Assembly (NCBI RefSeq): GCF_000010625.1 | Contig: NC_010296.1 | Location: 5,580,001 to 5,612,000, forward strand | Source: Microcystis aeruginosa NIES-843 | GTDB taxonomy: Bacteria; Cyanobacteriota; Cyanobacteriia; Cyanobacteriales; Microcystaceae | Direction of reading: 5' to 3' | Length of the DNA: 32,000 nt | Part shown: positions 7,908 through 32,000 of the stretch, one piece after another | How the letters are laid out: every line of letters begins with the position of its first letter | Numbering within the stretch: the first letter of the stretch is position 1 | Notes under the pieces: generated by a model | Seen by the model: only the letters and a program-made list of their open reading frames with translations | Told to the model about the DNA's origin: nothing | Database searches by the model: none | Program-made: the position numbers and the translations under genes

Positions 7908-8031
7908 TAATTAGGGTCTGCGGCAAAAAGTTCCTAACCGTAATTCCCCTGCTGCTGTCCTTCGACCTGATTCTTACCGAGAAGGAGATCAAGTCAAAAA
8001 AAGAACCCTTGCCAAAATCTGAAACTGGCTC

Positions 8032-12281: not shown

Positions 12282-13528
12282 AACTGATGCCAAGCGGCTG
12301 CATATTGGGGAGATTGATTAATTAATTGTTGATAGAGAGCGATCGCTTCTTCAAGCTTAAGCTGTTTTTGCAAGGTGTATGCTTGCCGATAAAGGGTATC
12401 TGCTGGGGAAGTATCAGGCTGATTATTTGCTATATTTCCTCCAACTAAAGGAGAAATAGGATCAAGAGTAATAATTTTACTGATGTCATCATTTTGAAAT
12501 CCTAAAGCTTGGGGACGTTTAACTCCTTCTAAGACTTGTATATCATAAAGTTCAGTCACTTCACCTTCTAAGCGTATCCAGTGAACAACTTCACCTGTTT
12601 TCAAGTCAATAATTAGCAGACCACAGCGAGGCTCTGCTTCTTTAGCCATTAAATTATCATCTAAGATTAACCCCGAAAAAGTCTTATCTCCCCCACGACT
12701 TTTAGATAATCCAACAATGGCATAATTTCTGACAAATGCTAAACCGCGCAGAAAACCAGGACAAAAAGTAACAGGCTCAAAAATGCCCTTATTTTGATCA
12801 ATATAACCAAAGTAACCCGTACCCGCATTTAATAACCATAACTTACCCTGATAAAATCGGGGAGAATGAGGCATAGATAAACCAGTAGCAATTACTTCAT
12901 TAGACTGAATATCAATGACACAACCGCCAGTTTGTCTTCTGTCTCTCCACCCATCCACCACATCTGATTGACTACAAGCGGTAACATAACGCGCCTTCCC
13001 ATCTACCAAAGCTAAACCATTGAGATGACAACGATCTTCATTGACTAAAGCGGAAATAAACGACGGTTTCCATAGGGGAATACAACTATGGCGATCGCTG
13101 ACTGTCGCCAGACAATTTAACATCGTACTGATAAATATAATTCTTTCAGAGAGATTTTCTATTGCCAAATCGTGAATATCTAAATCCCCAGTAGTATAAC
13201 TAATGCGGGGGATATAAAGTTTATCGTAACCATTATAAAGCTGTTCGGATGATAGCACATTATCTAGTTGCCAGATTTGATAGCGGGAACTAAGATAAAT
13301 CCTTTCTGGGGTAGTATATAAACCCATGGCGCGGTCAAATATCCGCTCAAATCCCGACATCCCCCTGTGGGGGTTAACTCCTAAAAACATCAGTCGAGAA
13401 CTTTGATAGGTAGTAAAAGCCAGACTAATCTGCTGAGACTCTAACCAATCAATGAAATTACGGGAAGCAATTATCTCTACGGGGATAGATTGATTAGTGG
13501 GACTTAAACAAATTTCAAGCCCAAACAA
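12257..13528 (-). CDS. TIGR03032-family domain protein; this is the N-terminal half of the split gene, and its own 5' end is displaced by an IS
   Basis: The 423-aa ORF resembles the TIGR03032 conserved hypothetical family (recalled from memory) and ends in a first TPR unit. The last 7 codons (ASHLCK-stop) are MITE-encoded. The first 9 codons (MFGLEICLS) are IS-encoded. Confidence 0.7.
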   Translation of the reverse strand: MFGLEICLSPTNQSIPVEIIASRNFIDWLESQQISLAFTTYQSSRLMFLGVNPHRGMSGFERIFDRAMGLYTTPERIYLSSRYQIWQLDNVLSSEQLYNGYDKLYIPRISYTTGDLDIHDLAIENLSERIIFISTMLNCLATVSDRHSCIPLWKPSFISALVNEDRCHLNGLALVDGKARYVTACSQSDVVDGWRDRRQTGGCVIDIQSNEVIATGLSMPHSPRFYQGKLWLLNAGTGYFGYIDQNKGIFEPVTFCPGFLRGLAFVRNYAIVGLSKSRGGDKTFSGLILDDNLMAKEAEPRCGLLIIDLKTGEVVHWIRLEGEVTELYDIQVLEGVKRPQALGFQNDDISKIITLDPISPLVGGNIANNQPDTSPADTLYRQAYTLQKQLKLEEAIALYQQLINQSPQYAAAWHQLGASHLCK

Positions 13529-14859
13529 AGCCTAAACTGGCTTTGTAAGCGGCAAACACATCCCGATTCTCGGTCAGCCACTCAAAGAAACGGAAAGACA
13601 TCGCTGTCCGAAAAGCTTCCAAGGCTTCCACAAAAGTGTTTAAAGGTCGATTCGCCCACTGCCTTTGCAATCCCCCAGTTAACTTATGCCACAGGATAAA
13701 TGTATAGGCACAAAACACCAGGATAAAATGACGAAGTAAGCTTCGTTTATCCCTGACTTGATATTCCCTTAACCCTAACCATCCTTTGGCTTCTCGGTAG
13801 AATACTTCCACCCAATTTCTTTCGGTGTAAGTCCTCACTATCCACGAAGCTGTTACTGTATCTGCCTCAACTACATTGGTGATGAAATAGTCCACCTCTG
13901 TGGCTTTTTCCATTGAACTTGCATTCATGACGATCGCCAAGTTCCTTTCTCCTTCTAGTTGAGATATTTTCGCTCTGAATACCGCTACCCAAACCGTTTT
14001 TTCTTTATCTAGATTTAGGGTGATTTTCTCCCAATCCTTTTCTGATAGGCTTTTTGCTAGTTGCTCAAGCTGGATTGTTTCTTCCACACCCCCTTCTTTT
14101 TCAATAATTACTTTTCGATTTTTTGCCAATCCTCCTAAGTATTTTAGCTTTCTTTCTTCCAGGGCTTTGAGAAAATTTGTGTTGTTGCCATAACCAGCAT
14201 CTATTAAGACGATTTTCGGTCGATAGCCTCTGGTTAAGCTCCGGTCAATTAAATCTATCGCTATCTCTGGTTTCTTCTTAAATTCTTTGTCTTCTTTCCC
14301 CTCGGCTAAGGAACTAGCCGGTTGATAAATTTCAATGTCTAGGGGGACACTTTTTTTGCCGTCGTAGAGATGGGTAGTGACGGCGACTATTCCGTTGTCT
14401 GTCTTGCCAATTTCTCCTAGGTACTGCCTGCCAACTCCGGCGGTCAGATTGCCACTTTTTCGATGTCCTGAGTCATCGACAATCAGGGAAAATCCTCGGG
14501 GGATTTGCGTCTGGCGGCATTGGTTCATCACTTGCAACCGACATTCATTCACCTGACGGTCTGACCAGGGAGATTCGGTCAAAAAGTGATGTAATCGGTT
14601 ATAAACTACTCCGACGGCATTATTGGCCATTTGAGTGAGGTTTTTCCTCTCACTTTCCCCTAATAATCCTCCTAAATATTGTCTGAAGCCGTTTTTTTGC
14701 GCTTCGTTTTTGAAGCAATTGTCAAACCGCCGACACCATCGGTCAAAGCATGGGGGCATCGCGGCTGGGGTTGTCTCTTTCATCGCTGATCTTTCAACGT
14801 AAAGTGCTTACTCTTTAACGATTATACTCGATTTGATCTTTATTTGGCGTTTAAGTCCC
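13499..14859 (-). mobile_element. Complete IS701-like (IS4 superfamily) insertion sequence (1361 bp)
   Basis: The inverted repeats are GGGACTTAAAC (13499-13509) and GTTTAAGTCCC (14849-14859). The 6-bp TSD ATTAGT occurs at 13493-13498 and 14860-14865. Confidence 0.85.
13515..14783 (-). CDS. IS701-like DDE transposase
   Basis: The 422-aa ORF has an N-terminal region (FRQYLGGLL...RKNLTQMA...LHHFLTESPWSD) typical of IS701-group transposases, plus DDE-region motifs VDDSGH, LIDAGYG and YTERNWVEVFYREAK. Confidence 0.8.
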   Translation of the reverse strand: MKETTPAAMPPCFDRWCRRFDNCFKNEAQKNGFRQYLGGLLGESERKNLTQMANNAVGVVYNRLHHFLTESPWSDRQVNECRLQVMNQCRQTQIPRGFSLIVDDSGHRKSGNLTAGVGRQYLGEIGKTDNGIVAVTTHLYDGKKSVPLDIEIYQPASSLAEGKEDKEFKKKPEIAIDLIDRSLTRGYRPKIVLIDAGYGNNTNFLKALEERKLKYLGGLAKNRKVIIEKEGGVEETIQLEQLAKSLSEKDWEKITLNLDKEKTVWVAVFRAKISQLEGERNLAIVMNASSMEKATEVDYFITNVVEADTVTASWIVRTYTERNWVEVFYREAKGWLGLREYQVRDKRSLLRHFILVFCAYTFILWHKLTGGLQRQWANRPLNTFVEALEAFRTAMSFRFFEWLTENRDVFAAYKASLGFVWA

Positions 14860-15628: not shown

Positions 15629-16876
15629 GTGGACTGTTTCAGCTAATTTGGTGCAATAGATTCTCCCGATTCCTCCTCCTCAAACACAGGATAAAGATGT
15701 TTCAGCTTGACCCTAGCATCGCTGGTCGTAAACGTCCATATTACTGTAGATGCAGTCTGATTACGTTCTTTTTGCCAGGTTTCTATCTCCCTTTTCAGTT
15801 CTTCCTTGCTAGAAATCCTTCTATCTAAACATTGCCTCGATAAGACGCTTAGTTCAGTTTCGGCTACATTTAACCAGCTACCATTACGAGGTGTGTAATA
15901 AATTTCCAGTCTTCTAGCTAAACGATGAGCAACGGGTGCTGGAAATGCTTCATAAAGCGAGGCTATGTTATGAGTGTTGAGATTATCACAGACGAGCTTG
16001 ACTTTTCGAGCCTTTGGATAGTCCACATCCAATAATTGACGAATTTCTTCTGCCCAATCTATTCGGGTTCGACTATCTCGGTTACTCACCCGTCTCCATC
16101 CTCGATGGGGGTCAAAAAACATGAACAAGGCTTGAACCCCTTCACGACTATAGTGATAGTCTTCTTTTTTATCTTGTCCAGGTTGCATGGGTATCGGAGG
16201 GTAAACTTCTCCAAGTAGTTGCTTTGATGCTTCATCCATCGCGATTAACGGTTCTTCTTCCGATGGCTGAGTGCCATACAGGTCAAGGACAACTTCCATC
16301 TGGGCAACAAATCGGGCTAAATCCTGTTCCGGAATACAGTATCTTTGGGTTTTCCAAGGGCGTAATTGGTTTTTTTTAGAGTACGCCACACCGTTGGACT
16401 GGAAATCTCGGTGATAATTTGTCTTTGTTTGAGTTCCGAGGTTAATAGTCGGATTGTCCACTCGGCTCGGCCAGATGGTGGCTCCGAACAGCACAGGGCA
16501 ATGATTTGGGCGGCGGCGGCTCCATCAACTTTTGCCGGAGTGGGGGGAGTTTTTCTCGATTTCCGTTCTAATGCTGGTTTTTCGCCTTTTTGAAGAAATC
16601 TTTGACGAATACGTCCCACTGTATTTCTATGAACTTCTAAAGCTTCGCCTATTTCTTCATCTGTCCATTTCCTTTTCGCCTGTTCTCCCTCGTCACACAT
16701 CAGCAAAATCCGAGCGTGGAGAATTTTTTTAGCTGGTGCATAGCCATTACGACTGATTTGTTCGAGGTTTTCTCTTTGTTCCCCTGTTAGATTGACTTTA
16801 TCTCGCCGACCTCTTCCCATGATTGATGTCCTCTGCTTGTTCGAGCTATTGCCCTATTTTAGCTGAAACAGTCCAG
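15629..16876 (-). mobile_element. Complete IS630-family insertion sequence (1248 bp)
   Basis: The inverted repeats are GTGGACTGTTTCAGCTAA (15629-) and TTAGCTGAAACAGTCCAG (-16876). A TA target duplication occurs at 15627-15628 and 16877-16878. It is inserted in the left terminus of repeat D2. Confidence 0.9.
15643..16820 (-). CDS. IS630 family transposase, encoded as two overlapping frames joined by a probable -1 frameshift
   Basis: OrfA (16317..16820) is an HTH domain. OrfB (15643..16494) is a DDE domain (VCDNLNTHN, GSWLNVAETELS). The two frames overlap at an A8 run (16370-16377 as T8 on the plus strand), with orfB in the -1 frame relative to orfA. Confidence 0.85.
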
Positions 16877-19751: not shown

Positions 19752-21824
19752 CCCACATTCCGCACCCTCAACTGTCACATAAGCTGTCCCCCGCCAGAGA
19801 CTTGAGTAAAAATACTTAGCTGGTGAAGGTTTTCTCGGTGGCCGCTAGGGGGGCTTTGAGACCCTAATTATGAAAAAATAGGAATTGTTGGAAAACTGAG
19901 GCGAGTGGACTGTTCGACCATGAATCAATCAACAGAAATTGAAGTCAAAAATCTAGACCATCTGGGATTAGTAGCCGGAATTATCGATGAAATAGGAATC
20001 GTTGAAATTATCAACGAACAAGTCTCAATTGAGCGAGGAGAAATTGTCACAGCGGGGCAAGTCGTGAAAGCAATTATCCTGAATGGATTGGGATTTGTCT
20101 CCCGAGCCTTGTATTTATTTCCTCAATTTTTTGAAGATAAAGCAACCGAACATCTGCTGGGAGAAGGCATCGAAGCAAAACACCTGAATGATGATAAAAT
20201 TGGTCGAGTAATGGACAAACTTTATCAACTGGATGTTTCGGGTATTTTCCTACTCATCAGTTTAGCCGCCGTGAAAAAATTTGGTGTAGCAACCGAGAAC
20301 TCCCATTTAGATTCGACTTCTCTATCAGTAGAAGGAGAATATAAAAAGGAATACCCAACAGTAGAAATCCTGAAATCAGGAGCAGTGGGAGAAGAAATTG
20401 AAACCAGACAACAGCCAATAAAAATTACCTACGGATACTCCCGCGACCGAAGACCTGACTTAAAACAATTTATGATTGACTTAATCGTAAGTGGGGATGG
20501 AGATGTACCTTTATTCCTGAAAGTAGGGGACGGAAATGAAGCGGACAAAGCGGTTTTTGGTCAAATCGCCCGAGAATTTAAAAAACAAGTTGACTTTGAC
20601 AGTTTAATAGTCGGCGATAGCGCCCTCTATAGCAAAGAGAATTTAAAACTAATGAAAGAAATGCGTTGGTTGTCTCGAGTACCATTAAGCATTAAAGAGG
20701 CTCAAGAGTTAGTCGATAGCATCTCAGAAAAAGAGTTAACCGATTCAGAAATACCGGGTTATTCCTGGCGGGAAACAAGCTCTAACTATGGGGGTATAGA
20801 ACAAAGATGGTTGCTAGTTGAAAGTCAAGCTAGACAAGAATCAGACTTGAAAAAATTAGAGAAAAAAATCGAGCAAGAAAAGAATTCTGCCCAAGAAAAA
20901 ATCCGGCAACTATCCCGAAGAGAATTTGAGAATAGAGCGGTGGCGTTGGCGATAGCCAAAGGATTATCTGACTCCTTAAAATCTCATCAGTTAACGGAGA
21001 TTAAAGTCAATCTCATTCCGCCTGAGTCTCAGCAGTCAAAACTCAAATCAAAAGACGATTTGCCCTCTCAAAGCTATCAAGTTCAAGCCGAATTAGAGTT
21101 GAATTTGGCAGCGATTGAGAGGCTAAAGAAACGAGCAGGACGATTCGTTTTAGCAACTAACGATTTGGAGAAAAAACGATTGAGCAGTGAGGATATACTC
21201 AAAAAATATAAGGGGCAACAAGCTCCGGAAAGAGGATTTTCTTTTCTCAAAGACCCCTGCTTTTTTGCCCACAGTGTCTTTCTCAAATCTCCCCATAGAA
21301 TCGAGGTCATGGCCATGCTCATGGGCTTGTGCCTGCTGGTTTATACTATTGGTCAAAGACAACTTCGTTTAAGTTTAAAACAGCAGGAGACGGGACTGAA
21401 AAATCCGTTGGGTAAGTTAACTGACCGACCGACGTTACGCTGGATATTTCAGTGCTTTCAAGGGATTCATCTCGTCCGTATTCAAGACAATCAAAAGATT
21501 AGCAACTTAACGGATGAGAGGCGCAACATTTTGAGATTTTTTCCCAAACCTTGCCAGGAATATTATCTCTTATCTTGACCAGATGGATTGACTTCAAGGG
21601 GTGACAAAACAAAGCGAGCAACTGGAACATCTCCCCCTAGATGTTAAGTCTGATTGCCTAGTCATTCTCAACAAGCACTGTTTATTGAGAATGACCGGGG
21701 GAACTCTGAAATTTTCGGCTTAGTTGCCGGCAGCTTGCCGCCAACTCACTCCTCTAGATAAGTATTTTGACTCGCGCCCCTTCCTCTTTTGAGACGTTGT
21801 GACACTTAGGGTGCGGAATGTGGG
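19752..21824 (+). mobile_element. Complete IS1634-family insertion sequence (2073 bp)
   Basis: The inverted repeats are CCCACATTCCGCACCCT (19752-19768) and AGGGTGCGGAATGTGGG (21808-21824). The 6-bp TSD ATTTAT occurs at 19746-19751 and 21825-21830. Confidence 0.9.
19920..21578 (+). CDS. IS1634 family transposase
   Basis: The N-terminus MNQSTEIEVKNLDHLGLVAGIIDEIGIVEIIN is the characteristic IS1634-group start. The ORF track starts at a GTG at 19905, and the ATG at 19920 is more plausible. Confidence 0.85.
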   Translation: MNQSTEIEVKNLDHLGLVAGIIDEIGIVEIINEQVSIERGEIVTAGQVVKAIILNGLGFVSRALYLFPQFFEDKATEHLLGEGIEAKHLNDDKIGRVMDKLYQLDVSGIFLLISLAAVKKFGVATENSHLDSTSLSVEGEYKKEYPTVEILKSGAVGEEIETRQQPIKITYGYSRDRRPDLKQFMIDLIVSGDGDVPLFLKVGDGNEADKAVFGQIAREFKKQVDFDSLIVGDSALYSKENLKLMKEMRWLSRVPLSIKEAQELVDSISEKELTDSEIPGYSWRETSSNYGGIEQRWLLVESQARQESDLKKLEKKIEQEKNSAQEKIRQLSRREFENRAVALAIAKGLSDSLKSHQLTEIKVNLIPPESQQSKLKSKDDLPSQSYQVQAELELNLAAIERLKKRAGRFVLATNDLEKKRLSSEDILKKYKGQQAPERGFSFLKDPCFFAHSVFLKSPHRIEVMAMLMGLCLLVYTIGQRQLRLSLKQQETGLKNPLGKLTDRPTLRWIFQCFQGIHLVRIQDNQKISNLTDERRNILRFFPKPCQEYYLLS

Positions 21825-22594
21825 ATTTATCGTGTCATTACCTGCATCATTGGTAAAGCGATCATCGCCTGTATCACCATTGAGGAGATCATTCCCACTA
21901 CCACCATAAAGTTCATCAGAACCATCTCCACCATTGAGGACATCATTTCCATCCTCTCCATAAATGTCGTCATAACCAGCATTACCTGAAATAGTATCGT
22001 TACCACTTCCACCATTGAGTCCACCATAATAATAATAAGATTCACTTTCTGTCCCGCCAAAAATGACATCATTATACTCAGTTCCCTTAAACCCGTTAAA
22101 ACTCTCAATCGAAGTAAAGGTATCAGTTTCTGTACCGACAGTAATCGTCCCACTCCCGGTAGTGGTATTGTAGGTCATGGTTAAACCGCTACTAGCACTA
22201 CTGTAGTCAACCTCATAGCGATCAGTCCCACTACCACCATTTATCGTGTCATTACCTGCATCGTTGGTAAAGTAATCACTTCCATCCCCACCGTCAAGAG
22301 AGTCATTACCATTACCCCCATAAATATTATCGCTTCCCCCCAAACCACTTAAAGTATCATTGCCATCTAACCCAAAAATATTATCACTTGCAGAAGTTCC
22401 CGTAATATTATCATCCCCATTAGTACCCGTAAAATTCGCCTGTTCTACTTGAATAATTTCCCCATTTACTATAATTGTTGTCTGGTCATTCTCTCCTCGT
22501 AAAGCGTCTAAGGTTGCCACATCCAGACTATTTCCTTGAACCAACTCCGCAAAAATCGCCCCCTCATCTCCGGCGCTATCCACCTGATTAATTT
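21825..22594 (-). pseudogene. Middle segment of the disrupted RTX/Calx-beta exoprotein (ORF-track entry 21720..22583)
   Basis: It has RTX-type GGxGND repeats and one DRYEVDYSS module. The ORF continues from ...NDAGNDTIN into IS-encoded residues. Upstream it joins ...VDAQIN-QVDSAGDEGA... once the MITE is removed. Confidence 0.8.
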
Positions 22595-22781
22595 GGCTCT
22601 TCGGTAATTGTTATGCAATGGACGGGGGTTATAAGGGATGGAACCCTTATATAGAAAGGCATTTAGCGATTTTTGTCAATTATTTTTGATCTAGAGCGAA
22701 CTAATCAATTAAGTCTCTTACCAGATAAGGATTTAGTCGATTTATGACCCCCTATCGAACCATACCAAGTAACGAAGAACC
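22595..22781. mobile_element. 187-bp ISL3-derived MITE (copy 2, inverted relative to copy 1)
   Basis: Its ends are GGCTCTTCGGTAATTGTTATGCAATGGACGGG... and ...GTAACGAAGAACC. The 8-bp TSD ATTAATTT occurs at 22587-22594 and 22782-22789. It is nearly identical to the reverse complement of 5136-5322. Confidence 0.9.
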
Positions 22782-23123
22782 ATTAATTTGAGCATCCACA
22801 TAATGCCCAATTTCTTCTAAAATTACATTAACTATCGCTGCTGACGAGGCCGTATTTAAAAAAGATGCTGATAAATAAATCTTATTGGTACTACTGGAAT
22901 ATGCACCATTCGCCGTCCCTAAAACTTCATCACTGAGTACCTCAATTGGGGGAATTTGACTAAAATTTCGGCTTTTCCACTGCTGTTGTAGTTCTGTCGC
23001 CTTAACCACATCATAACTTGTGCCAAAAGCGATAGCCAAATTCGCCCAAAAGCCATCAGATTGAGCGAAATTAAACAAAACATCGTCAACAGCAGGAAGA
23101 ATCGACAAAAGAGAGAGAGTCAT
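22782..23123 (-). pseudogene. N-terminal segment of the disrupted exoprotein (ORF-track entry 22752..23123)
   Basis: The segment MTLSLLSILPAVDD...AYSSSTNKIYLSASFL...VILEEIGHYVDAQIN then reads into the MITE (GSSLLGMVR-stop). Confidence 0.75.
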
Positions 23124-23204
23124 GACAGTAACAGCAAAAGTTTATTGATAACAGTTTTAGCCTAACAATCCCCAATCTTTCAAGGGGGATATAACAAAAA
23201 TTTA

Positions 23205-23256
23205 CAGAAAACGGGTTTCTCGAAGGAACCCGTTTTCTAAGAAACCCGTTTTCTAG
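23205..23256. repeat. Palindromic repeat cluster (AGAAAACGGGTTTCT-type hairpin plus an extra half-site)
   Basis: The sequence is CAGAAAACGGGTTTCTCGAAGGAACCCGTTTTCTAAGAAACCCGTTTTCTAG. A related cluster lies in the same orientation at 29131-29213. Confidence 0.7.
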
Positions 23257-23645
23257 ATATTGATTTTTGCCAAAGACTGCTTAAATTCTGCGAGAGAATT
23301 AGCGGTAGCTGCTAATTTAACAATCTCTTGTAATGTAGATAGTAACGAAACTTTATTCAGGTATTGTTCCACATCTAAAGGAACTTCACCTAATCGAGAT
23401 TCCAAAACTGTTTTGACAAAATCACGAGCATTTTCTAACGCGCCAATTTCCTTACCAATTTCCTTGCCAATTTCCTTACCGCGTTCCATTCCTCGTAACT
23501 CCATATTACTCATTAAAGGCATGGTTTTTTCCTCGTCAAATTGTTTGATTTTACTCTCTAAACTTGACTGCAATTCAGGGGATAAAGTCATCATATTGTC
23601 GATGATTTCAAACAGTTTACTAAGTAAAGTAGTTATTACCCACAC
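23253..23645 (-). pseudogene. Orphan C-terminal (DUF4351-type tail, haplotype B) fragment of an Rpn-family gene
   Basis: Homology to the full-length paralogs starts abruptly at KLFEIIDNMM (23619) and runs to the stop. It is nearly identical in DNA to the tail of 25745..26332. Only a GTG overlapping the upstream stop is available as a start. Confidence 0.75.
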
Positions 23646-24607
23646 TACTTATTTATGATGATACTAAAAGACTTCCTACACTCCTCAAAAGAATTTACTA
23701 TAAGTGCGGCTTTTAACATCTCTTCTAAAACCGAAATAACTGAAGCATCATTGAGACATTGTCCAATATCTCCAGGGATATCGCCTAGTCGGTTTTCCAA
23801 AACTTTTTTCACAAAATCACGAGCATTTTCTAACGCTCCAATTTCCTTACCGCGTTCTATCCCTCGTAACTCCATATTACTCATTAAAGGCATGGTTCTT
23901 TCCTCCTCAAATTGTTTGATTTTACTTTCTAAACTTGACTGTAATTCAGAGGATAAAGTCATCAGATTGTCGATGATTTCAAACAGTTTAATTATCTGTT
24001 CCCTCTCGAACTCCTTTTCATACAATCCCCTGATTAACTTCCACTTCCACTGTTCCCGTTGTGGCAGCTTCCCAGTAGTCGCTTTTGTTTTCAGGTGTGC
24101 CATGACTATTATAGCAAAAGGATTGCTACTTGCTTCTAGTTCTGTCCATCTTTCCTCATAGTCCAGTAATTTAACCGTTGGGAATTTCAAACTCACTTCA
24201 CAGCCAGCGATAGTATAATTATAGGAATCTGGTCGCCAATTTACTCGTTCATCTCCTAAAATTGCCAGACTGATAACCGGTTTCTGATACAAATCAAAGG
24301 CCCGATAGTTATAAATATACATCCTCTGAGGGAAATTTTCTTCGTATTGACTTTGAATTTCAATATGAATCAAAATCCAGACTTCTTCACCCCTGAGTAA
24401 CCAGACTTTATAGAGTTTGTCAGCGAAACGTTTTTTTGTCTTTGCTGAAGCGGTAATCCGTTTGAGTTCTTTTTCTAGGGATTCGGGAGTTTTTGTCCAA
24501 TCAATTAATTGGTGAACTTCAGGAAAAAAGAAGTATAAAAACGCTTCAAAATACTCGGTTAATGCTTCTTTCCAGGGTTCATCATAATTGGCGGTTGTTG
24601 GGTTCAT
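23645..24607 (-). CDS. Rpn family recombination-promoting nuclease / putative transposase (PD-(D/E)XK plus DUF4351), copy 4, tail haplotype C
   Basis: The 320-aa ORF has the N-terminus MNPTTANYDEPWKEALTEYFEAFL, a nuclease core FADKLYKVW...VWILIHIEIQSQYE, one GKEI unit and the unique tail ...DFVKKVLENRLGDIPGDIGQCLNDASVISVLEEML... Confidence 0.8.
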   Translation of the reverse strand: MNPTTANYDEPWKEALTEYFEAFLYFFFPEVHQLIDWTKTPESLEKELKRITASAKTKKRFADKLYKVWLLRGEEVWILIHIEIQSQYEENFPQRMYIYNYRAFDLYQKPVISLAILGDERVNWRPDSYNYTIAGCEVSLKFPTVKLLDYEERWTELEASSNPFAIIVMAHLKTKATTGKLPQREQWKWKLIRGLYEKEFEREQIIKLFEIIDNLMTLSSELQSSLESKIKQFEEERTMPLMSNMELRGIERGKEIGALENARDFVKKVLENRLGDIPGDIGQCLNDASVISVLEEMLKAALIVNSFEECRKSFSIIINK

Positions 24608-24628
24608 TGGAGAAGAAAATTACTGAGA

Positions 24629-25651
24629 CTATTGTTCTAAAAGTTGATGCAACTCATCAAAAGAATTAACGGTTAATGCCGATTTCAGTAACTCGTCTAA
24701 AATCGATAATACAGAAATTTTATCAACAGCTTGCTCAATTTCTATTGGAATGTCACCCAATCGCGTTTTCAGCACCGTTTTAACATAGTTACGAGCATTT
24801 TCTAACGCTCCAATTTCCTTACCAATTTCCTTGCCAATTTCTTTACCGCGTTCTATCCCTCGTAACTCCCCAATTTCCTTGCCAATTTCCTTACCGCGTT
24901 CTATTCCTCGTAACTCCATATTACTCATTAAAGGCATCGTTCTTTCCTCCTCAAATTGTTTGATTTTACTCTCTAAACTTGACTGCAATTCAGGGGATAA
25001 AGTCATCATATTGTCGATGATTTCAAACAGTTTAATTATCTGTTCCCTCTCGAACTCCTTTTCATATAATCCCCTGATTAACTTCCACTTCCACTGTTCC
25101 CGTTGTGGCAGCTTCCCAGTAGTCGCTTTTGTTTTCAGGTGTGCCATGACTATTATAGCAAAGGGATTGCTACTTGCTTCTAGTTCTGACCAGCTTTCCT
25201 CATAGTCCAGTAATTTAACCGTTGGGAATTTGAGGCTGACTTCACAACCGGCGATAGTATAATTATAGGAATCTGGTCGCCAATTTACTCGTTCATCTCC
25301 TAATATAGCGAGACTGATAACCGGTTTCTGATACAAATCAAAGGCCCGATAGTTATAAATATACATCCTCTGAGGAAAATTTTCTTCGTATTGACTTTGA
25401 ATTTCAATATGAATCAAAATCCAGACTTCTTCACCCCTGAGTAACCAGACTTTATAGAGTTTGTCAGCAAAACGTTTTTTTGTCTTTGCTGAAGCGGTAA
25501 TCCGTTTGAGTTCTTTTTCCAGGGATTCGGGAGTTTTTGTCCAATCAATTAATTGGTAAACTTCAGGAAAGAAGAAGTATAAAAACGCTTCAAAATACTC
25601 GGTTAATGCTTCTTTCCAGGGTTCATCATAATTGGCGGTTGTTGGGTTCAT
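24629..25651 (-). CDS. Rpn family nuclease paralog, copy 3, tail haplotype A
   Basis: The 340-aa ORF has the same N-terminal module. Its GKEI tract is duplicated (2 units, then ELRGIER, then 3 units). Its tail, NYVKTVLKTRLGDIPIEIEQAVDKISVLSILDELL..., is identical to that of copy 1. Confidence 0.8.
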   Translation of the reverse strand: MNPTTANYDEPWKEALTEYFEAFLYFFFPEVYQLIDWTKTPESLEKELKRITASAKTKKRFADKLYKVWLLRGEEVWILIHIEIQSQYEENFPQRMYIYNYRAFDLYQKPVISLAILGDERVNWRPDSYNYTIAGCEVSLKFPTVKLLDYEESWSELEASSNPFAIIVMAHLKTKATTGKLPQREQWKWKLIRGLYEKEFEREQIIKLFEIIDNMMTLSPELQSSLESKIKQFEEERTMPLMSNMELRGIERGKEIGKEIGELRGIERGKEIGKEIGKEIGALENARNYVKTVLKTRLGDIPIEIEQAVDKISVLSILDELLKSALTVNSFDELHQLLEQ

Positions 25652-26321
25652 GAATTACGACAACAGTTTTAATTGTTCTCCGCTTCTGGCTAAGAGTTTA
25701 AAGGTGAATGGGTGAGCAGTGCAGCACCCTAGGGTAAGATTTTCTTATTGGATTCTTGCCAAAGACTGCTTAAATTCTGCGAGAGAATTAGCGGTAGCTG
25801 CTAATTTAACAATCTCTTGTAATGTAGATAGTAACGAAACTTTATTCAGGTATTGTTCCACATCTAAAGGAACTTCACCTAATCGAGATTCCAAAACTGT
25901 TTTGACAAAATCACGAGCATTTTCTAACGCTCCAATTTCCTTACCAATTTCCTTACCGCGTTCTATTCCTCGTAACTCCATATTACTCATTAAAGGCATG
26001 GTTCTTTCCTCCTCAAATTGTTTGATTTTACTCTCTAAACTTGACTGCAATTCAGGGGATAAAGTCATCATATTGTCGATGATTTCAAACAGTTTAATTA
26101 TCTGTTCTCTCTCGAACTCCTTTTCATATAATCCCCTGATTAACTTCCACTTCCACTGTTCCCGTTGTGGCAGCTTCCCAGTAGTCGCTTTTGTTTTCAG
26201 GTGTGCCATGACTATTATAGCAAAGGGATTGCTACTTGCTTCTAGTTCTGACCAGCTTTCCTCATAGTCCAGTAATTTAACCGTTGGGAATTTGAGGCTG
26301 ACTTCACAACCGGCGATAGTA

Positions 26322-27412
26322 GGCCAATTCAAGTCTGAATTGCATCACTGTCTGATCTACCTTTATAGAATACCTCATTCGGGGTACGATAGTCAAGACA
26401 TTTTCGAGGACGATTGTTAATCAAGTTTACGGCTCTTTCCACCTCCTCTGGCTTAACGATTTTAAAATTCGTTCCCTTGGGGAAAAATTGTCTTAACAGT
26501 CCCTTGGTATGCTCGTTTAATCCCCTCTCCCACGAATGATAAGGAGTAGCAAAATAAAAATCTGCTCCTAGTTTCTGACTCAACTCTTGATGTCCACAAA
26601 ATTCTTTGCCGTTGTCACAAGTAAAGGTTTTTCTTTTGTCAGGGTGAATCTCTTGAAAAAGTTTTTCTGTGACTCTATTGATTTCCGATGCGGTTTTGTT
26701 TTTGGCTAATCCTGCTCCTAAAAATTTCGAGGCTTTATCTACATGAGTAACGAGAACTCCTAGATGATTGCCTCCAATCATTGTGTCACTTTCCCAATGA
26801 CCGATTTCAGTTTTCTGGTCAGCAATTACTGGTCGCTCGCTGATATCTACACGCCCTGGAATCCCTCCACGCTTACTTTTTGCTCCGCCTCGACTCTTTC
26901 TTTGACAAAGCCCCCGGCGTAAATATTTCTGGTACTCTCCACATCCGTGATAGTTCTGATAGATCATTTGATAGATGGTTTCGTGACTGAGAGATTCTTG
27001 ACTGGCTCTTTTCAGACGACCTGCTATTTGTTCGGGACTATGATAATCTTTCAATCCTTCTTTGACCAACTCTAAGGCTGACTCGCTGACATTTTTAAAG
27101 GGTTGTTTGGCATTTTTTCGCCTTGTCTCGCTTTGAGCTTGTGCTGTGTCAGGTAGATAGCAGCCAAGGGAACTTTGATTCCTTTTTAATTCCCGTGATA
27201 TTGTGCTTTGATGACATCCGAGCCAGACGGCCATTTGCCGTTGAGATAAATTTCCCTCCTGACTAAGTTGGTAGAGCAAGTTTCTTTGTTCTATGTTAAG
27301 ATGTTGGTGGCTCATTTTGGGTCTGATTTGTTTTTGTTAATGATCAGACAGTACCTGATGAGCCTTTCTTTGTCAACTCTTGAGGTTGATGCGTTTCATT
27401 TTTGAATTGGCG
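26322..27412 (-). mobile_element. Complete IS30-family insertion sequence (1091 bp)
   Basis: The inverted repeats are GGCCAATTCAA (26322-) and TTGAATTGGCG (-27412). The 3-bp TSD GTA occurs at 26319-26321 and 27413-27415, within the sequence GCGATAGTATAATTATAGG that is intact in the paralogs. Confidence 0.85.
26329..27315 (-). CDS. IS30 family transposase
   Basis: The 328-aa ORF has an N-terminal HTH region (LSQRQMAVWLGCHQSTISRELKRN) and DDE-region motifs HWESDTMIG, TCDNGKEF and YHSWERGLNEHTKGLLRQF. Confidence 0.9.
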   Translation of the reverse strand: MSHQHLNIEQRNLLYQLSQEGNLSQRQMAVWLGCHQSTISRELKRNQSSLGCYLPDTAQAQSETRRKNAKQPFKNVSESALELVKEGLKDYHSPEQIAGRLKRASQESLSHETIYQMIYQNYHGCGEYQKYLRRGLCQRKSRGGAKSKRGGIPGRVDISERPVIADQKTEIGHWESDTMIGGNHLGVLVTHVDKASKFLGAGLAKNKTASEINRVTEKLFQEIHPDKRKTFTCDNGKEFCGHQELSQKLGADFYFATPYHSWERGLNEHTKGLLRQFFPKGTNFKIVKPEEVERAVNLINNRPRKCLDYRTPNEVFYKGRSDSDAIQT

Positions 27413-27819
27413 GTATAATTATAGGAATCTGGTCGCCAATTTACTCGTTCATCTCCTAATATAGCGAGACTGATAACTGGTTTCTGATACAAATCAAAGG
27501 CCCGATAGTTATAAATATACATCCTCTGAGGAAAATTTTCTTCGTATTGACTTTGAATTTCAATATGAATCAAAATCCAGGCTTCTTCACCCCTGAGTAA
27601 CCAAACTTTATAGAGTTTGTCAGCGAAACGTTTTTTTGTCTTTGCTGAAGCGGTAATCCGTTTAAGTTCTTTTTCTAGGGATTCGGGAATTTTTGTCCAA
27701 TCAATTAGTTGGTGAACTTCAGGAAAAAAGAAGCATAAAAACGCTTCAAAATACTCGCTTAATGCTTCTTTCCAGGGTTCATCATAATTGGCGGTTGTTG
27801 GGTTCATTGGAGAAGAAAA

Positions 27820-28803
27820 TTACTGATAATATTGTTCTAAAAGTTGATGCAACTCATCAAAAGAATTAACGGTTAATGCCGATTTCAGTAACTCGTCTAA
27901 AATCGATAATACAGAAATTTTATCAACAGCTTGCTCAATTTCTATTGGAATGTCACCCAATCGCGTTTTCAGCACCGTTTTAACATAGTTACGAGCATTT
28001 TCTAACGCTCCAATTTCCTTACCTATTTCCTTACCTATTTCTTTACCGCGTTCCATTCCTCGTAACTCCATATTACTTACTAAAGGCATGGTTCTTTCCT
28101 CCTCAAATTGTTTGATTTTACTCTCTAAACTTGACTGCAATTCAGGGGATAAAGTCATCATATTGTCGATGATTTCAAACAGTTTAATTATCTGTTCTCT
28201 CTCGAACTCCTTTTCATATAATCCCCTGATTAACTTCCACTTCCACTGTTCCCGTTGTGGCAGCTTCCCAGTAGTCGCTTTTGTTTTCAGGTGTGCCATG
28301 ACGATTATAGCAAAGGGATTGCTACTTGCTTCTAGTTCTGACCAGCTTTCCTCATAGTCCAGTAATTTAACCGTTGGGAATTTGAGGCTGACTTCACAAC
28401 CAGCGATAGTATAATTATAGGAATCTGGTCGCCAATTTACTCGTTCATCTCCTAATATAGCGAGACTGATAACCGGTTTCTGATACAAATCAAAGGCCCG
28501 ATAGTTATAAATATACATCCTCTGAGGGAAATTTTCTTCGTATTGACTTTGAATTTCAATATGAATCAAAATCCAGACTTCTTCACCCCTGAGTAACCAG
28601 ACTTTATAGAGTTGGTCAGCGAAACGTTTTTTTGTCTTTGCTGAAGCGGTAATCCGTTTGAGTTCTTTTTCTAGGGATTCGGGAGTTTTTGTCCAATCAA
28701 TTAATTGGTGAACTTCAGGAAAAAAGAAGTATAAAAACGCTTCAAAATACTCGGTTAATGCTTCTTTCCAGGGTTCATCATAATTGGCGGTTGTTTGTTT
28801 CAT
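27820..28803 (-). CDS. Rpn family nuclease paralog, copy 1, tail haplotype A
   Basis: The 327-aa ORF starts MKQTTANYDEPWKEAL..., has three GKEI units and carries tail haplotype A. Only 12 nt (GGAGAAGAAAAT) separate its stop from the start of copy 2. Confidence 0.8.
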   Translation of the reverse strand: MKQTTANYDEPWKEALTEYFEAFLYFFFPEVHQLIDWTKTPESLEKELKRITASAKTKKRFADQLYKVWLLRGEEVWILIHIEIQSQYEENFPQRMYIYNYRAFDLYQKPVISLAILGDERVNWRPDSYNYTIAGCEVSLKFPTVKLLDYEESWSELEASSNPFAIIVMAHLKTKATTGKLPQREQWKWKLIRGLYEKEFEREQIIKLFEIIDNMMTLSPELQSSLESKIKQFEEERTMPLVSNMELRGMERGKEIGKEIGKEIGALENARNYVKTVLKTRLGDIPIEIEQAVDKISVLSILDELLKSALTVNSFDELHQLLEQYYQ

Positions 28804-28873
28804 TATGACAATTTTAGTGGGTTGTTGTCAGAAGGCGATCGCTAACATAAGAACTAAGCAGTTAAAGTATTTA

Positions 28874-29065
28874 GGGTTTGCTGAAAAAGTTTTTCCTGGG
28901 GGCAGGGTGTAGGGTTTTAGCGATTTTGAGGGGGTCAATTACTTAATTTTCAGGGAAAAAGTCCCGGAATTTTCCACCCGATCACTCCCAGATATGGCAC
29001 TTTTTGGTTTCCAAAAAGTCTAAAAGTTTTACCCAACAAGGTTTTTAGATTTATTCAGCAAGCCC
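28874..29065. mobile_element. 192-bp MITE of the GGGTYTGCTGAATAA-terminus family (copy B, inverted relative to copy A)
   Basis: The right terminus is TTATTCAGCAAGCCC and the left is degenerate (GGGTTTGCTGAAAAAG). The 6-bp TSD TATTTA occurs at 28868-28873 and 29066-29071. Its interior matches the reverse complement of 7687-7907. Confidence 0.75.
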
Positions 29066-29130
29066 TATTTAACCAATTGATTAAATCTTCAACCGTAGAG
29101 AAATCGAATAAAGCTTCTCTCTCACAAGTC

Positions 29131-29213
29131 CAGAAAACGGGTTTCTCGAAAAAAACCGTTTTCTAAATAGTTTCTCAAAGAAACCCGTTTTCTAAATAGA
29201 AACCCCTTTTCTC
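29131..29213. repeat. Palindromic repeat cluster related to 23205-23256
   Basis: The sequence is CAGAAAACGGGTTTCTCGAAAAAAACCGTTTTCTAAATAGTTTCTCAAAGAAACCCGTTTTCTAAATAGAAACCCCTTTTCTC. It overlaps the last 13 codons of the oxygenase ORF. Confidence 0.7.
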
Positions 29214-30647
29214 AGTTGAGATTGCTTCTGCGCCTTTTTCTGATTTTTCTTGCCAAGTACCGTGAAAACTGGGAGGGATAACACTGGGTAATTGCAGACA
29301 GCAAAGGGGGTCTTTTTCTAACTGCTGACTATCATAGATTCTCACTTGGCTGCTGTGATTATTGCCGTCGTAAACCACGACGATTAACCATCCCGTTTCT
29401 GGAGATAAACCATCGCAGACAAAAATCGGTTCACTTCCATAACAGTTATTTTCTAGATAAGCAATAGTTAACTTACCTGTGGAGTGATTATAACAAGCGG
29501 GAAGTCCGATAATTTCCCGACGAATATCGCTATCGGGACGATGGACAGCTAAAAAAGTATTTTGCCATTTTTGTCCCACCAGCTGCGGGGAAACCACGGG
29601 AAAATCACAGCTTAAATCCGAGAGAATTTCCTGATTAATCACCTTTGCTGATAGGGGATTAATAGTAATACTTGCTAATTTTCCGATGGCTAAGGTTTCG
29701 GTTTCACCCGTGGCAACTTCTTTTAAAAATTGATTAGTTTTAAAGTCGTCATAACGGACAAAAACAATTTCAAGATTGCCTTGGTCATTCACACAACCAT
29801 TAGCGAAGTGCCATTGAAACCATGAATCTGTAACACTTTCACTGACTAATTGCAGAGAATCTCGCTCAAAAATTAGTATTCTTGTTCCTAATTCTGGCTG
29901 CCACTGCATGGCATCACTAAAAGTTTTAAATCCCAACAGTATCGATAATTTATCCGCTTTTATTGGTGGGACGAAAAAGACGAGATACTGTCCTGCTAAA
30001 ACAAAGTCATGCAGCAGAGACAATCTATCTAACTCAAAAGTGTTTTTCTGGATAATTTGACCAGTGGAGTCAGACTTATAGAGATTTAAACTAACTTTGG
30101 CACTGATTGTCACCCCGAAATTAAAAATCTCTCCTCTGGACAAATCTAGCTTAGGATGAGCGGAAAAAGTTTCCTTTGCTTGTAAGCTAGATAAATTATC
30201 TAAGCCTAGGGTTTCTAAAGATTGTAAATCTAATTTATGGGGAAAACCCCCTTCCCAGAGAGCTAATAATTTATCGGGTAAAGCTAACACCGAGGTATTA
30301 GCGGCATTTTTTACCTCTTTTCCCCAATTATTCCAAAAGAAGCCGGGGGCATTCATGCCATAATTAGGAAATAAATATTGATTAGCGGCACTTTCTTGCT
30401 GATAACCGGCAGTCTGGACATAACGATAGGTGGCACTGACTCCCTTATCATGAAAATGTACAGCTAAAACTGCCCCATCTCCGTCAAACCAATGACCAAC
30501 TTTCTGCTTACCTCTTTCTAATCTCCCCGGACCATTGCGATAGAGACTACCCCGCAATCCGTCAGGAATTTTCCCCGATAATAAGGTTAATTGCGTTTCA
30601 GAAAATTCCACTGCTGGTTTTTCTAAAGATTTTGCCCAAGCTTTCAT
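29175..30647 (-). CDS. Carotenoid cleavage oxygenase (RPE65 / apocarotenoid oxygenase family)
   Basis: The 490-aa ORF has the motifs GSLYRNGPG, HWFDGDGA, FSAHPK, HDF, WFQWHFAN and a C-terminal PPSFHGTW, which mark the four-His iron site pattern of this family. The last ~20 residues run into the palindromic repeats and may be a non-native extension. Confidence 0.85.
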   Translation of the reverse strand: MKAWAKSLEKPAVEFSETQLTLLSGKIPDGLRGSLYRNGPGRLERGKQKVGHWFDGDGAVLAVHFHDKGVSATYRYVQTAGYQQESAANQYLFPNYGMNAPGFFWNNWGKEVKNAANTSVLALPDKLLALWEGGFPHKLDLQSLETLGLDNLSSLQAKETFSAHPKLDLSRGEIFNFGVTISAKVSLNLYKSDSTGQIIQKNTFELDRLSLLHDFVLAGQYLVFFVPPIKADKLSILLGFKTFSDAMQWQPELGTRILIFERDSLQLVSESVTDSWFQWHFANGCVNDQGNLEIVFVRYDDFKTNQFLKEVATGETETLAIGKLASITINPLSAKVINQEILSDLSCDFPVVSPQLVGQKWQNTFLAVHRPDSDIRREIIGLPACYNHSTGKLTIAYLENNCYGSEPIFVCDGLSPETGWLIVVVYDGNNHSSQVRIYDSQQLEKDPLCCLQLPSVIPPSFHGTWQEKSEKGAEAISTEKRGFYLENGFL

Positions 30648-30762: not shown

Positions 30763-31455
30763 TTATAAAGTATCGGGATCAATTCCCAGATAACGGATAT
30801 ATTCAGCTAAACGTTCAGCTTTAAGACGCTCTTGTTCTAATTGTAAACTTGCTTGTTCAGCTTTAAGACGCTCTTGTTCTAACCTTTGAGATAATTCGAT
30901 AGAAGTCAAAAATTTCTGACCATCTAAACTATAAATTTCTAACTCATCTTCTCTCAATTCAAATCGGATATTTAACCGAGGACTAACCCATCCCTTAATC
31001 TCAGGTATAGAACTTAATAGTCCTTTCTGTCTCAACCATCCTTGAAAATTATGATAATCGGGATCATAGAGATAGTATTCTTCCACTCCATAACGTTGAT
31101 AAAAGAGGAGTTTTCGCTCCATTTCTTCTAAACTATTAGAAGGGGAGAGAATTTCAAAGACCACTTGAGGAGCGATGTTATCTTCTTGCCATTGTTTATA
31201 GGAACCCCTTCTTCCTTTCGGACGACCAAATACTACCATAACATCGGGAGCAACTGGTCCGGTAATTTTTTTATCTTGGACGGGATACCAGAGGAGATCT
31301 CCCGCAATAAAAACGTTAGGAGAATTAGCAAAGAGAATCTCAAGATTTTCTTTAATTTTCACGATCCATTCGTATTGTTCGGTATTATCGGCCATGGGTT
31401 TACCGTCACTATCGGGGTATTCAATATCTGGATCAATAGCTGGTGTAAAGGTCAT
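30763..31455 (-). CDS. Uma2 family (DUF820) PD-(D/E)XK endonuclease with a coiled-coil C-terminal extension
   Basis: The 230-aa ORF has YPDSDGKPMADNT, PDVMVVFGRPKGRRGSYKQWQEDNIAPQVVFEILSPSN (the D...E-x-L/K core) and EEYYLYDP, followed by the repeats LEQERLKAEQASLQLEQERLKAE. Confidence 0.85.
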   Translation of the reverse strand: MTFTPAIDPDIEYPDSDGKPMADNTEQYEWIVKIKENLEILFANSPNVFIAGDLLWYPVQDKKITGPVAPDVMVVFGRPKGRRGSYKQWQEDNIAPQVVFEILSPSNSLEEMERKLLFYQRYGVEEYYLYDPDYHNFQGWLRQKGLLSSIPEIKGWVSPRLNIRFELREDELEIYSLDGQKFLTSIELSQRLEQERLKAEQASLQLEQERLKAERLAEYIRYLGIDPDTL

Positions 31456-31476: not shown

Positions 31477-32000
31477 TCATAAAGTCTCGGGATCAATTCC
31501 CAGAGAACGGATATATTCAGCTAAACGTTCAGCTTTAAGACGCTCCTGTTCTAATTGTAAACTTGCTTGTTCTAATTGTAAACTTGCTTGTTCAGCTTTA
31601 AGACGTTCTTGTTCCAATTGTAACCTTGCTTGTTCAGCTTTTTGGGATAACTCGATAGAACTTAAAAATTTCTGACCATCTAAACTATAAATTTCTAACT
31701 CATCTTCTCTCAATTCAAATCGGATATTTAACCGAGGACTAACCCATCCCTTAATCTCAGGTATAGAACTTAATAGTCCTTCCCGTCTCAACCATCCTTG
31801 AAAATTATGAGAATCCGGATCATAGAGATAGTATTCTTCCACTCCATAACGTTGATAAAAGAGTAGTTTTCGCTCCATTTCTTCTAAACTATTAGAAGGG
31901 GAGAGAATTTCAAAGACCACTTGAGGAGCGATGTTATCTTCTTGCCATTGTTTATAGGAACCCCTTCTTCCTTTCGGACGACCAAATACCACCATAACAT
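31477..32000 (-). CDS. Uma2 family endonuclease, tandem paralog, partial; the N-terminus lies outside the window
   Basis: It is nearly identical in DNA to 30763..31280 but has a longer coiled-coil repeat tract. The ORF-track start MVVFGRPKG corresponds to an internal position (about residue 73) of the neighbouring copy, so the gene continues past 32000. Confidence 0.85.
   Translation of the reverse strand, partial: VMVVFGRPKGRRGSYKQWQEDNIAPQVVFEILSPSNSLEEMERKLLFYQRYGVEEYYLYDPDSHNFQGWLRREGLLSSIPEIKGWVSPRLNIRFELREDELEIYSLDGQKFLSSIELSQKAEQARLQLEQERLKAEQASLQLEQASLQLEQERLKAERLAEYIRSLGIDPETL

Follow-up and report, generated by a model that had tools for sequence, protein, structure and literature searches.

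A tandem array of divergent Rpn-like genes with mosaic tails and a conserved internal start signal in Microcystis aeruginosa NIES-843

Why should a row of nearly identical nuclease genes end in tails that differ abruptly from one copy to the next, and what could such an arrangement do for its host? The question is raised by a 32,000-nucleotide (nt) stretch of Microcystis aeruginosa NIES-843 DNA (NC_010296.1, positions 5,580,001-5,612,000), referred to here as the window, to which all positions are relative. On its minus strand, between 23253 and 28803, four full-length paralogs (c1-c4) and one 5'-truncated tail-only unit (c5) are arranged head to tail. The locus probably represents a tandem array of divergent Rpn-type toxin-intragenic antitoxin genes. 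What can be observed is the anatomy of the array, its homology, its mosaic history and a conserved internal start signal. Microcystis is a bloom-forming genus under heavy phage pressure, and this host ecology gives the array ecological relevance.

Rpn genes encode a toxic endonuclease, RpnL, together with RpnS, a small protein that is made from an internal start and neutralises no RpnL but its own (Zhong et al. 2023, PNAS; PMC10400941). In E. coli, the pairing of RpnL with RpnS was demonstrated to be mediated by the tail. A four-residue repeat, consisting of one hydrophobic residue plus charged residues or Gly, begins 8-20 residues after the internal Met; its number differs among strains and determines pairing specificity. 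RpnS is also encoded by a separate downstream gene (RpnSs), annotated as DUF4351 in some species, and the E. coli RpnSs, YpaA, is made as a protein and derives, like other E. coli RpnSs genes, from its own upstream gene. Arrays of rpn genes stem from tandem duplication, RpnSs genes have been fused or lost, and an rpn N-terminal domain was reported to have fused with an RpnSs gene downstream of it. HHpred links RpnS to helix-turn-helix motifs, the repeat precedent of EcoR124 is cited, and one Rpn system protects against T-even phages (PMC10400941). According to a commentary by Koonin, repeat variation should insulate multiple copies in one genome against cross-inhibition. The first-pass annotation of the window had described E. 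coli Rpn proteins as toxic endonucleases with a separately translated neutralising tail, in agreement with Zhong et al. Its further claim that the organisation was undescribed is wrong in essentials: arrays, stand-alone RpnSs genes, fusion or loss and repeat-set specificity are all published (PMC10400941), and the present array adds a cyanobacterial example to a known kind of system. What it adds in detail is a divergent clade in cyanobacteria, tails that fall into discrete classes, a conserved module in which a C-class gene is followed by a tail-only unit, usually of another class, and the excess of tail-only units. No relevant paper on Rpn in Microcystis, or on DUF4351 in cyanobacteria, came up in a literature search.

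Anatomy and family of the array

The five units, as delimited by open reading frames (ORFs) and alignment, and the insertion sequence (IS) within c2 are as follows.

27820-28803, minus strand: c1, full-length Rpn-like gene, 327 amino acids (aa), tail class A, 3 GKEI repeats
28615-28617, 28555-28557 and 28549-28551, minus strand: catalytic codons D63, E83 and Q85 of c1, placed by alignment
25745-27807, minus strand: c2 as a whole, Rpn-like gene split by an IS30-family element
27413-27807, minus strand: 5' part of c2, codons 1-131 including the catalytic core, truncated by the IS
26322-27412, minus strand: IS30-family insertion sequence, 1091 bp, within c2
26329-27315, minus strand: IS30 transposase ORF (NF033563 transpos_IS30, 297.5 bits against a cut-off of 80)
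25745-26318, minus strand: 3' part of c2, remaining helical domain, internal start site, 2 GKEI repeats, tail class B
24629-25651, minus strand: c3, full-length Rpn-like gene, 340 aa, tail class A with DNA identical to the c1 tail; repeat region GKEIx2-GELRGIER-GKEIx3
23645-24607, minus strand: c4, full-length Rpn-like gene, 320 aa, tail class C, 1 GKEI
23253-23618, minus strand: c5, 5'-truncated tail-only unit, 3 GKEI repeats, tail class B
27820-27990 (c1, A), 25745-25912 (c2, B), 24629-24790 (c3, A), 23645-23818 (c4, C) and 23253-23423 (c5, B), minus strand: variable tails

This layout, including the split of c2 by IS30, had been read correctly in the first-pass annotation. With the element removed, c2 forms an intact ORF of 969 nt (322 codons, 322 aa), so that the insertion is regarded as recent. 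The element itself carries the DDE transposase (with HTH_38 and rve domains), the terminal inverted repeats, (C/G)GCCAATTCAA as read off the sequence, and the short (2-3 bp) target duplication of the IS30 family, the last being the 3-bp TAC at 27413-27415 and 26319-26321. The homology of c5 to the other copies begins at 23618 (codon 207, KLFEIID), codons 207-238 being kept. The spacer after the TAA of each A-class tail is 13 nt long, and in c3 an earlier in-frame TAG closes the ORF 9 nt upstream of that TAA. The junction CAGTAATTTTCTTCTCCAATG, noted previously, is indeed common to the 3' side of both A-tailed genes, c1 and c3. The c2-c3 spacer measures about 90 nt and the c4-c5 spacer 34 nt.

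The motif D63...IHIE83IQ85S (D63, E83, Q85, S86) is invariant in 64 relatives, and among 117 diverse representatives with 32-55% identity to c1, D63 is invariant and E83 and Q85 nearly so. These residues align with D63/E82/Q84/S85 of E. coli (D63...IEHQS). Comparison by hhalign of the 117-representative alignment with E. coli RpnA/B/C/E gave a probability of 78% and E=1.8e-5 over 241 co-linear columns, which run from the N-terminal helices across the catalytic core as far as the repeats and the region of the internal start. This result supersedes that obtained with the shallow 64-sequence alignment, which was not significant (E=0.18). By BLASTP, c1 matched a distant Microcystis paralog over its full length (E=2e-16) and that paralog matched RpnC (E=1e-5); the paralog scores 21.0 bits with PF04754, at the cut-off, and 75.8 bits with DUF4351. 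The AlphaFold model of c1 (mean predicted local distance difference test, pLDDT, 83) displays an alpha-beta-beta-beta-alpha-beta core, the order expected of PD-(D/E)XK proteins. Assignment of the array proteins to a divergent cyanobacterial branch of the Rpn/YhgA family, right at the superfamily level, is supported by these sequence comparisons. To that extent the family proposed in the first-pass annotation stands, through the motif and the hhalign match; at the level of the PF04754 and TIGR01784 cut-offs it does not.

The DUF4351 label proposed for the tails likewise held in part. Tail A gave a weak match (14.6 bits against a gathering score of 25, E=0.034, positions 3-59 of 59), and orthologous tails reach the threshold, with 72.6 bits in Cronbergia, 63.4 in Geminocystis and 28.7 in a metagenome-assembled genome (MAG) of Microcystaceae; tails B and C were not matched. 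The Cronbergia orthologs, in which the nuclease module is 58% identical, carry a canonical DUF4351 tail together with a TIGR01784 match (E=8e-7). The tail domain of the window would therefore be homologous to DUF4351 by position yet diverged, because orthologous tails at the same place pass the threshold. Among the 117 representatives, DUF4351 is matched by 24 and PF04754 by 12 at E<=1e-3. Plasmid homologs 44% identical are named "Rpn family recombination-promoting nuclease" in RefSeq, and Nostocales plasmid homologs "DUF4351 domain-containing protein". Exact-sequence look-ups of c1, c3 and c4 returned no record. In a library of 1.84 billion proteins, the family comprises 8,266 clusters at E<=0.001 and 1,469 at E<=1e-30.

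Mosaic history and the internal start signal

Nuclease modules of the full-length copies are 96.3-98.1% identical in DNA over 749 aligned nt. Over the final 159 nt, classes A, B and C are only 59-64% identical to one another, and within a class identity is complete or nearly so (A, c1 and c3, 159/159; B, c2 and c5, 158/159). The abrupt fall from near-identity to about 50% after ALENAR that had been noticed by eye is confirmed by maximum chi-square analysis: in four of the five tail-differing pairs the breakpoint lies at alignment column 861, right after GCTCGT (ALENAR), with values of 226-243, and in c1 the variable tail starts immediately after ALENAR. In the fifth pair, c2 against c4 (B against C), it lies 24 nt later (192), because these two classes share eight further codons. 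At the protein level the tails of different classes are 47-49% identical; for A against B, 25/53 positions agree, close to the earlier hand count of 29/57.

Between the conserved part and the tail sits a 12-nt tandem repeat coding for GKEI, which the first-pass annotation did not mention. It was located by Tandem Repeats Finder (period 12) in four of the units.

28013-28047, minus strand: GKEI repeat of c1, 3 copies
25932-25957, minus strand: GKEI repeat of c2, 2 copies
24810-24917, minus strand: GKEI repeat of c3, 5 copies (2+3), interrupted by a duplicated ELRGIER segment
23443-23480, minus strand: GKEI repeat of c5, 3 copies
c4: single GKEI unit

The combinations of tail and repeat number are accordingly A3, B2, A5 (interrupted), C1 and B3. 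In other Microcystis copies the number of GKEI units ranges from 1 to 8, and related four-residue repeats occur in other genera (ERGI, EQGL, LQQG).

Could the jump in identity simply reflect stronger protein constraint on the nuclease half? This possibility was ruled out by computing the synonymous divergence (dS) and the ratio of nonsynonymous to synonymous divergence (dN/dS) separately for the two modules, as had been proposed. Within the window the nuclease modules show dS of 0.05-0.14 and dN/dS of 0.06-0.17, and the tail classes show dS of 0.9-2.0, which is saturated, and dN/dS of 0.19-0.41. Since synonymous divergence differs 10- to 20-fold, recombination rather than selection strength lies behind the jump. 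The tails are best described, from these sequence divergences, as old lineages under purifying selection, recombined onto nuclease modules of much more recent ancestry. Recent positive diversifying selection on the tails is unsupported, given the between-class dN/dS of 0.19-0.41 and saturated dS. Across Microcystis four discrete tail classes can be distinguished, A, B, C and a class D that does not occur in the window and whose last 25 residues are common with class B; divergence within a class is very low (dS 0.015-0.06).

The notion of a homogenised nuclease module with cassette-like tails, advanced in the first-pass annotation, is borne out by array-wise clustering, by the contrast in dS and by patchy substitutions. 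Among 27 full-length Microcystis copies, out of 77 related loci, nuclease modules group by array and not by tail class; they differ by 0.4% between A3 and C2 at locus L006 and by 0.3% between C1 and B8 at L014, and the nearest neighbours of the c1, c2 and c3 modules are one another. The c4 module contains a divergent patch at gene nt 342-489, in which 11/17 of its private differences fall (permutation p=0.0014), with none in the first 341 nt, and all 8/8 private substitutions of c2 lie within nt 50-330. These patches look as gene-conversion tracts would leave them. The syntenic position, downstream of an RPE65-family gene, holds a single D-class gene in M. wesenbergii, and an A-class gene plus a core-deleted D-class unit in M. 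ichthyoblabe; the locus is therefore subject to turnover in both tail class and copy number.

A second feature absent from the first-pass annotation is a Shine-Dalgarno-like GAGGAGG motif, placed 8 nt upstream of an in-frame ATG (codon 239) in c1-c4. The signals and the predicted RpnS-like products are as follows.

28098-28104 (c1), 26008-26014 (c2), 24946-24952 (c3) and 23902-23908 (c4), minus strand: GAGGAGG motif
23531-23537, minus strand: weakened motif of c5, GACGAGG
28087-28089 (c1) and at 23522 (c5), minus strand: ATG codon 239
27820-28089, minus strand: predicted short product of c1, 89 aa
25745-25999, minus strand: predicted short product of c2, 84 aa
24629-24937, minus strand: predicted short product of c3, 102 aa
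23645-23893, minus strand: predicted short product of c4, 82 aa
23253-23522, minus strand: predicted short product of c5, 89 aa

The GGAGG core is kept in 40/41 distinct full-length genes, including orthologs at 49-65% identity. In the remainder of these genes only 22% of Glu codons are GAG, so that GGAGG is conserved at synonymous sites despite the rarity of GAG; this points to selection on an RNA signal, evolutionary evidence for an internal start, and lends weight to the earlier suggestion of internal initiation at TMPLMSNMELRG. Initiation at codon 239 would yield a short in-frame product of 82-102 aa consisting of the repeats and the tail. The GKEI repeat begins 14 residues after M239 and is composed of one hydrophobic residue plus Gly and charged residues. 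In the model of the 89-aa c5 product (mean pLDDT 83), a 39-residue first helix containing the repeats is followed by three short helices. A promoter scan found 19 sites against 13.4 +/- 3.2 expected, which says nothing either way on an internal promoter.

Unit c5 retains the weakened ribosome-binding site, the ATG and an intact frame, and is likely the counterpart of a stand-alone, antitoxin-type RpnSs gene. It is not alone in this respect. The 34-nt junction between c4 and c5 was seen in 10 other places (9 loci) in Microcystis; C-class units are in 10/10 cases followed by this identical junction and then by a tail-only unit starting at codon 207, of class B, D or A in 9/10. The ribosome-binding site, ATG and intact frame are kept in 11/11 orphan tail-only units, across variable repeat numbers. 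Counting units that lie inside contigs, 23 retain a complete tail without an intact nuclease, having arisen in three ways: 5' truncation, replacement of the core by (CAGTTAT)n, or IS30 insertion. A core without a complete tail is found in three ORFs. Two of them, in the IS-split c2 and at L009, are what is left of disrupted genes; the third, L023 from a MAG, is the only otherwise complete nuclease module without a tail. Such an excess of tail-only over core-only units is the asymmetry that a toxin-antitoxin pair predicts, and the geometry of unequal crossing-over could contribute to it.

Interpretation and competing explanations

The resemblance to E. coli RpnA-E and RpnP2 lies in several features: an N-terminal PD-(D/E)XK module in which D...E-x-Q-S is positioned alike (E82/Q84 in E. 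coli, E83/Q85 in the array), an in-frame internal start with a ribosome-binding site (M244 in RpnA, M239 here, in regions that align), a four-residue repeat of variable number 8-20 residues after the Met (KGIE in RpnC, GKEI here), and a helical C-terminal domain that varies strongly. Both kinds of gene also occur in tandem arrays, on plasmids and in many copies per genome, and both are accompanied by a stand-alone tail gene downstream. There are differences as well. The window sequences lie beneath the curated family cut-offs, their tail, of DUF4351 type with one long and three short helices, exceeds that of E. coli in length and does not match 7TH0, the Microcystis tails form four discrete classes rather than a continuum, and the stand-alone tail is usually of another class than the gene upstream, unlike E. 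coli RpnSs. Cyanobacterial DUF4351 proteins, namely the Cronbergia and Geminocystis orthologs and the distant Microcystis paralog, carry their tail at the same position (63-76 bits), whereas the three window tails remain beneath the Pfam threshold.

In every intact gene the long product consists of a nuclease core (D63/E83/Q85), a helical middle domain, the GKEI run and a helical tail of DUF4351 type. On the toxin-antitoxin reading, by analogy with E. coli RpnL and RpnS, the short protein would bind its own long protein at the corresponding region and keep the nuclease inactive until infection or stress freed it, with partner specificity fixed by tail class together with repeat number. Here, translation of the short protein, toxicity, cognate neutralisation and a role in defence are what we infer. 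The array would have originated by tandem duplication; gene conversion or unequal crossing-over would hold the nuclease modules near-identical within the array, and old discrete tail classes would be swapped as blocks via recombination in the conserved segment around the repeats. In these terms, c2 would be a nuclease recently disabled by IS30 whose antitoxin part is still carried, and c5 a stand-alone antitoxin-type gene. Two features give independent support to the intragenic antitoxin model: tail-only units are in excess, and the ribosome-binding site is conserved at synonymous sites. If the model is right, the Rpn antitoxin-within-toxin system would reach a divergent, very large cyanobacterial clade mostly missed by standard domain models, and near-identical nucleases with three tail classes and several repeat numbers would offer a natural test matrix for pairing specificity.

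A number of results weigh against this interpretation. The window proteins stay under the cut-offs of PF04754 (17 vs 21 bits) and TIGR01784 (21.7 vs 52.1 bits, E=1.5e-4), and tails B and C lack any match to DUF4351 (PF14261) even at E<=10. Foldseek comparison of the full-length model with the PDB gave no match at E<=0.001, the non-significant matches including PD-(D/E)XK nucleases such as TnsA (E=0.26); the short-protein model gave none at E<=0.001 either, and the RpnA-S structure 7TH0 was not retrieved. A profile search of PDB sequences returned only chance-level matches, the PADLOC defence models returned no match, and the promoter scan showed no consensus promoter just upstream of the internal start. 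The window is rich in IS and contains no classical defence genes except two Uma2 copies. Finally, the five distinct combinations of tail and repeat number are not statistically unusual, the rough chance that no combination recurs being about 0.7 with about 32 possible combinations; their use as evidence for insulation was dropped, such an outcome being expected by chance.

An extended form of the toxin-antitoxin reading, which seems rather unlikely at present, is a combinatorial pairing code of four tail classes and repeat number, with non-cognate antitoxin-type genes hard-wired behind every C-class gene. The orphans could then be a cassette bank that re-pairs nucleases by recombination around the repeats, or alternatively could confer immunity in trans against Rpn toxins of other loci or foreign DNA. 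If so, the array would be a set of self-reshuffling orthogonal toxin-antitoxin pairs and not independent duplicates.

Variable modules attached to a constant enzyme are also characteristic of the HsdS subunits of type I restriction systems (TAEL in EcoR124I/II, phase-variable hsdS cassettes), where exchangeable specificity modules likewise accompany constant enzymatic ones, a long helix contains a four-residue repeat whose number varies, and nearby partial gene copies can donate segments. The tails might by analogy be target-recognition or DNA-binding modules, with the repeat number setting their spacing. We consider this improbable, although it draws on the helix-turn-helix relationship of RpnS by HHpred and the EcoR124 precedent (PMC10400941), on discrete tail classes under purifying selection (dN/dS 0.19-0.41) exchanged as blocks, and on weak HTH_7 matches in RpnC and one ortholog (E=0.07-0.09). 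It leaves unexplained why the ribosome-binding site before codon 239 is conserved at synonymous sites and why many tail-only units retain it, and in E. coli the tail has been shown to mediate RpnL-RpnS pairing (PMC10400941). Unlike HsdS systems, the array has no methylase or HsdR partner and no inverted repeats or recombinase for programmed switching, and its variable module forms part of the nuclease protein, being probably produced as a small protein of its own as well. Target recognition and antitoxin pairing are not mutually exclusive as roles of the tails. Another idea, which we hold to be quite improbable, is that tail-only units are silent cassettes for tail switching, a bank of the pilin or vls type; through recombination in the conserved 96 nt and the repeats, an orphan would exchange the tail of a full-length gene upstream of it. 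Silent cassettes would not need the ribosome-binding site, ATG and frame that are kept in 11/11 orphans; inverted or site-specific recombination signals were not found, and E. coli RpnSs (YpaA) is expressed as a protein (PMC10400941). In favour of that idea are the tail-only unit behind 10/10 Microcystis C-class units, of class B, D or A in 9/10, the sharing of classes between orphans and full-length genes with within-class dS of 0.015-0.06, and the reported fusion of an rpn N-terminal domain with RpnSs (PMC10400941).

It might be asked as well whether the array merely results from the activity or decay of a selfish repeat family that is annotated as "putative transposase". Its copies would spread, and recombination and IS activity would duplicate and break them, the tail arrangement having no cellular function. 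The family does occur at >=6 loci in M. ichthyoblabe, where assemblies break, and its homologs are found on 65 cyanobacterial plasmids; the surroundings are IS-rich, c2 is broken by IS30 and c5 truncated, and the units are flanked by hairpin elements and fragments of a neighbouring gene family. Against this stand the strong purifying selection on the nuclease module (dN/dS 0.06-0.17) with invariant catalytic residues, the conservation of each tail class, and the lack of flanking terminal inverted repeats or target duplications around the genes; PD-(D/E)XK proteins are, in addition, not known as autonomous transposases (PMC10400941). This explanation is judged very improbable.

Neighbouring sequences and related loci

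The array is bracketed by a hairpin element, and other genes lie on both sides of it.

23206-23254: hairpin element AGAAAACGGGTTTCT with its inverted copy, clustered immediately past the c5 stop codon
29132-29212: second cluster of AGAAAACGGGTTTCT, located at the 3' end of the RPE65-family gene and upstream of the array
22752-23123, minus strand: small ORF downstream of the array, weak SprT-like match (E=5e-4)
21720-22583, minus strand: ORF with RTX calcium-binding repeats, next downstream
30763-31455 and 31477-31995, minus strand: two adjacent, related Uma2-family genes (PF05685, "putative restriction endonuclease")
3336-4550, 13515-14783, 15643-16494, 19905-21578 and 26329-27315: transposase genes

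Seven of the eight matches of the hairpin element in the window (7/8) fall into the two clusters, 0.15 being expected by chance. The element follows the stop codon of the last tail in 15/17 other Microcystis loci and is often present upstream too; it could be a terminator, a repetitive extragenic palindromic (REP)-like repeat or a recombination boundary. A search of 21500-30000 against Rfam identified no family. The array family gave no match by tblastn in phage genomes, and two scans of IMG/VR viral contigs, one with the family alignment and one with the c5 short protein, returned no relatives; phage-borne mimics are thus not in evidence.

The SprT-like and RTX pair lies downstream of rpn-like units in >=14 Microcystis loci (L005, L008, L013, L017-L020, L042 and others) and also in Geminocystis (53% identity). 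Fragments of the first 25-40 codons of that gene family occur about 270-340 nt upstream of many rpn copies, and the family may be part of the duplicated unit or indicate a hotspot of insertion. Besides housekeeping genes, the 32 kb contain transposase genes of five IS types: ISL3, DDE_5, DDE_3, DUF4277 plus DDE_Tnp_1, and IS30. Microcystis genomes are known for their plasticity, with which this number is in keeping. In the two Uma2 genes, the C-termini hold repeated LQLEQERLKAEQAS-type segments, and the second copy seems N-terminally shortened.

A good sigma-70-like match, CTGACT-16-TATAAT (10 of 12), is present on the plus strand at 25236-25263 and 28388-28415, antisense within the nuclease modules of c3 and c1, in the stretch that corresponds to the divergent patch of c4. 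No equivalent is listed for c4, and the site may well be due to chance and have been carried along when the genes were duplicated.

A tandem heptamer, (CAGTTAT)n with n of about 4-7, takes the place of the nuclease core (about residues 67-157 or 35-157) of an rpn-like gene in several Microcystis loci, as at L005 (around 9200-9234), L007, L014, L021, L046, L052 and L053; no such replacement occurs in the window. Besides a stub of the N-terminus, the units concerned keep their tail and the internal start. A second, distant Rpn-like family, 21-24% identical to c1, lies directly upstream of array-type genes at L081 (8427-9374) and at L009, L011, L014, L017, L018 and L029, just upstream of position 8001. 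Its members contain RGIE/QGIE repeats and a canonical DUF4351 tail (75.8 bits), with a PF04754 score at the cut-off. In M. ichthyoblabe FBCC-A1114, the left flank of the array is best matched at 2.62 Mb (L005) and the right flank at 3.42 Mb (L021), which suggests that the chromosome was rearranged by recombination between dispersed rpn arrays or the RTX family.

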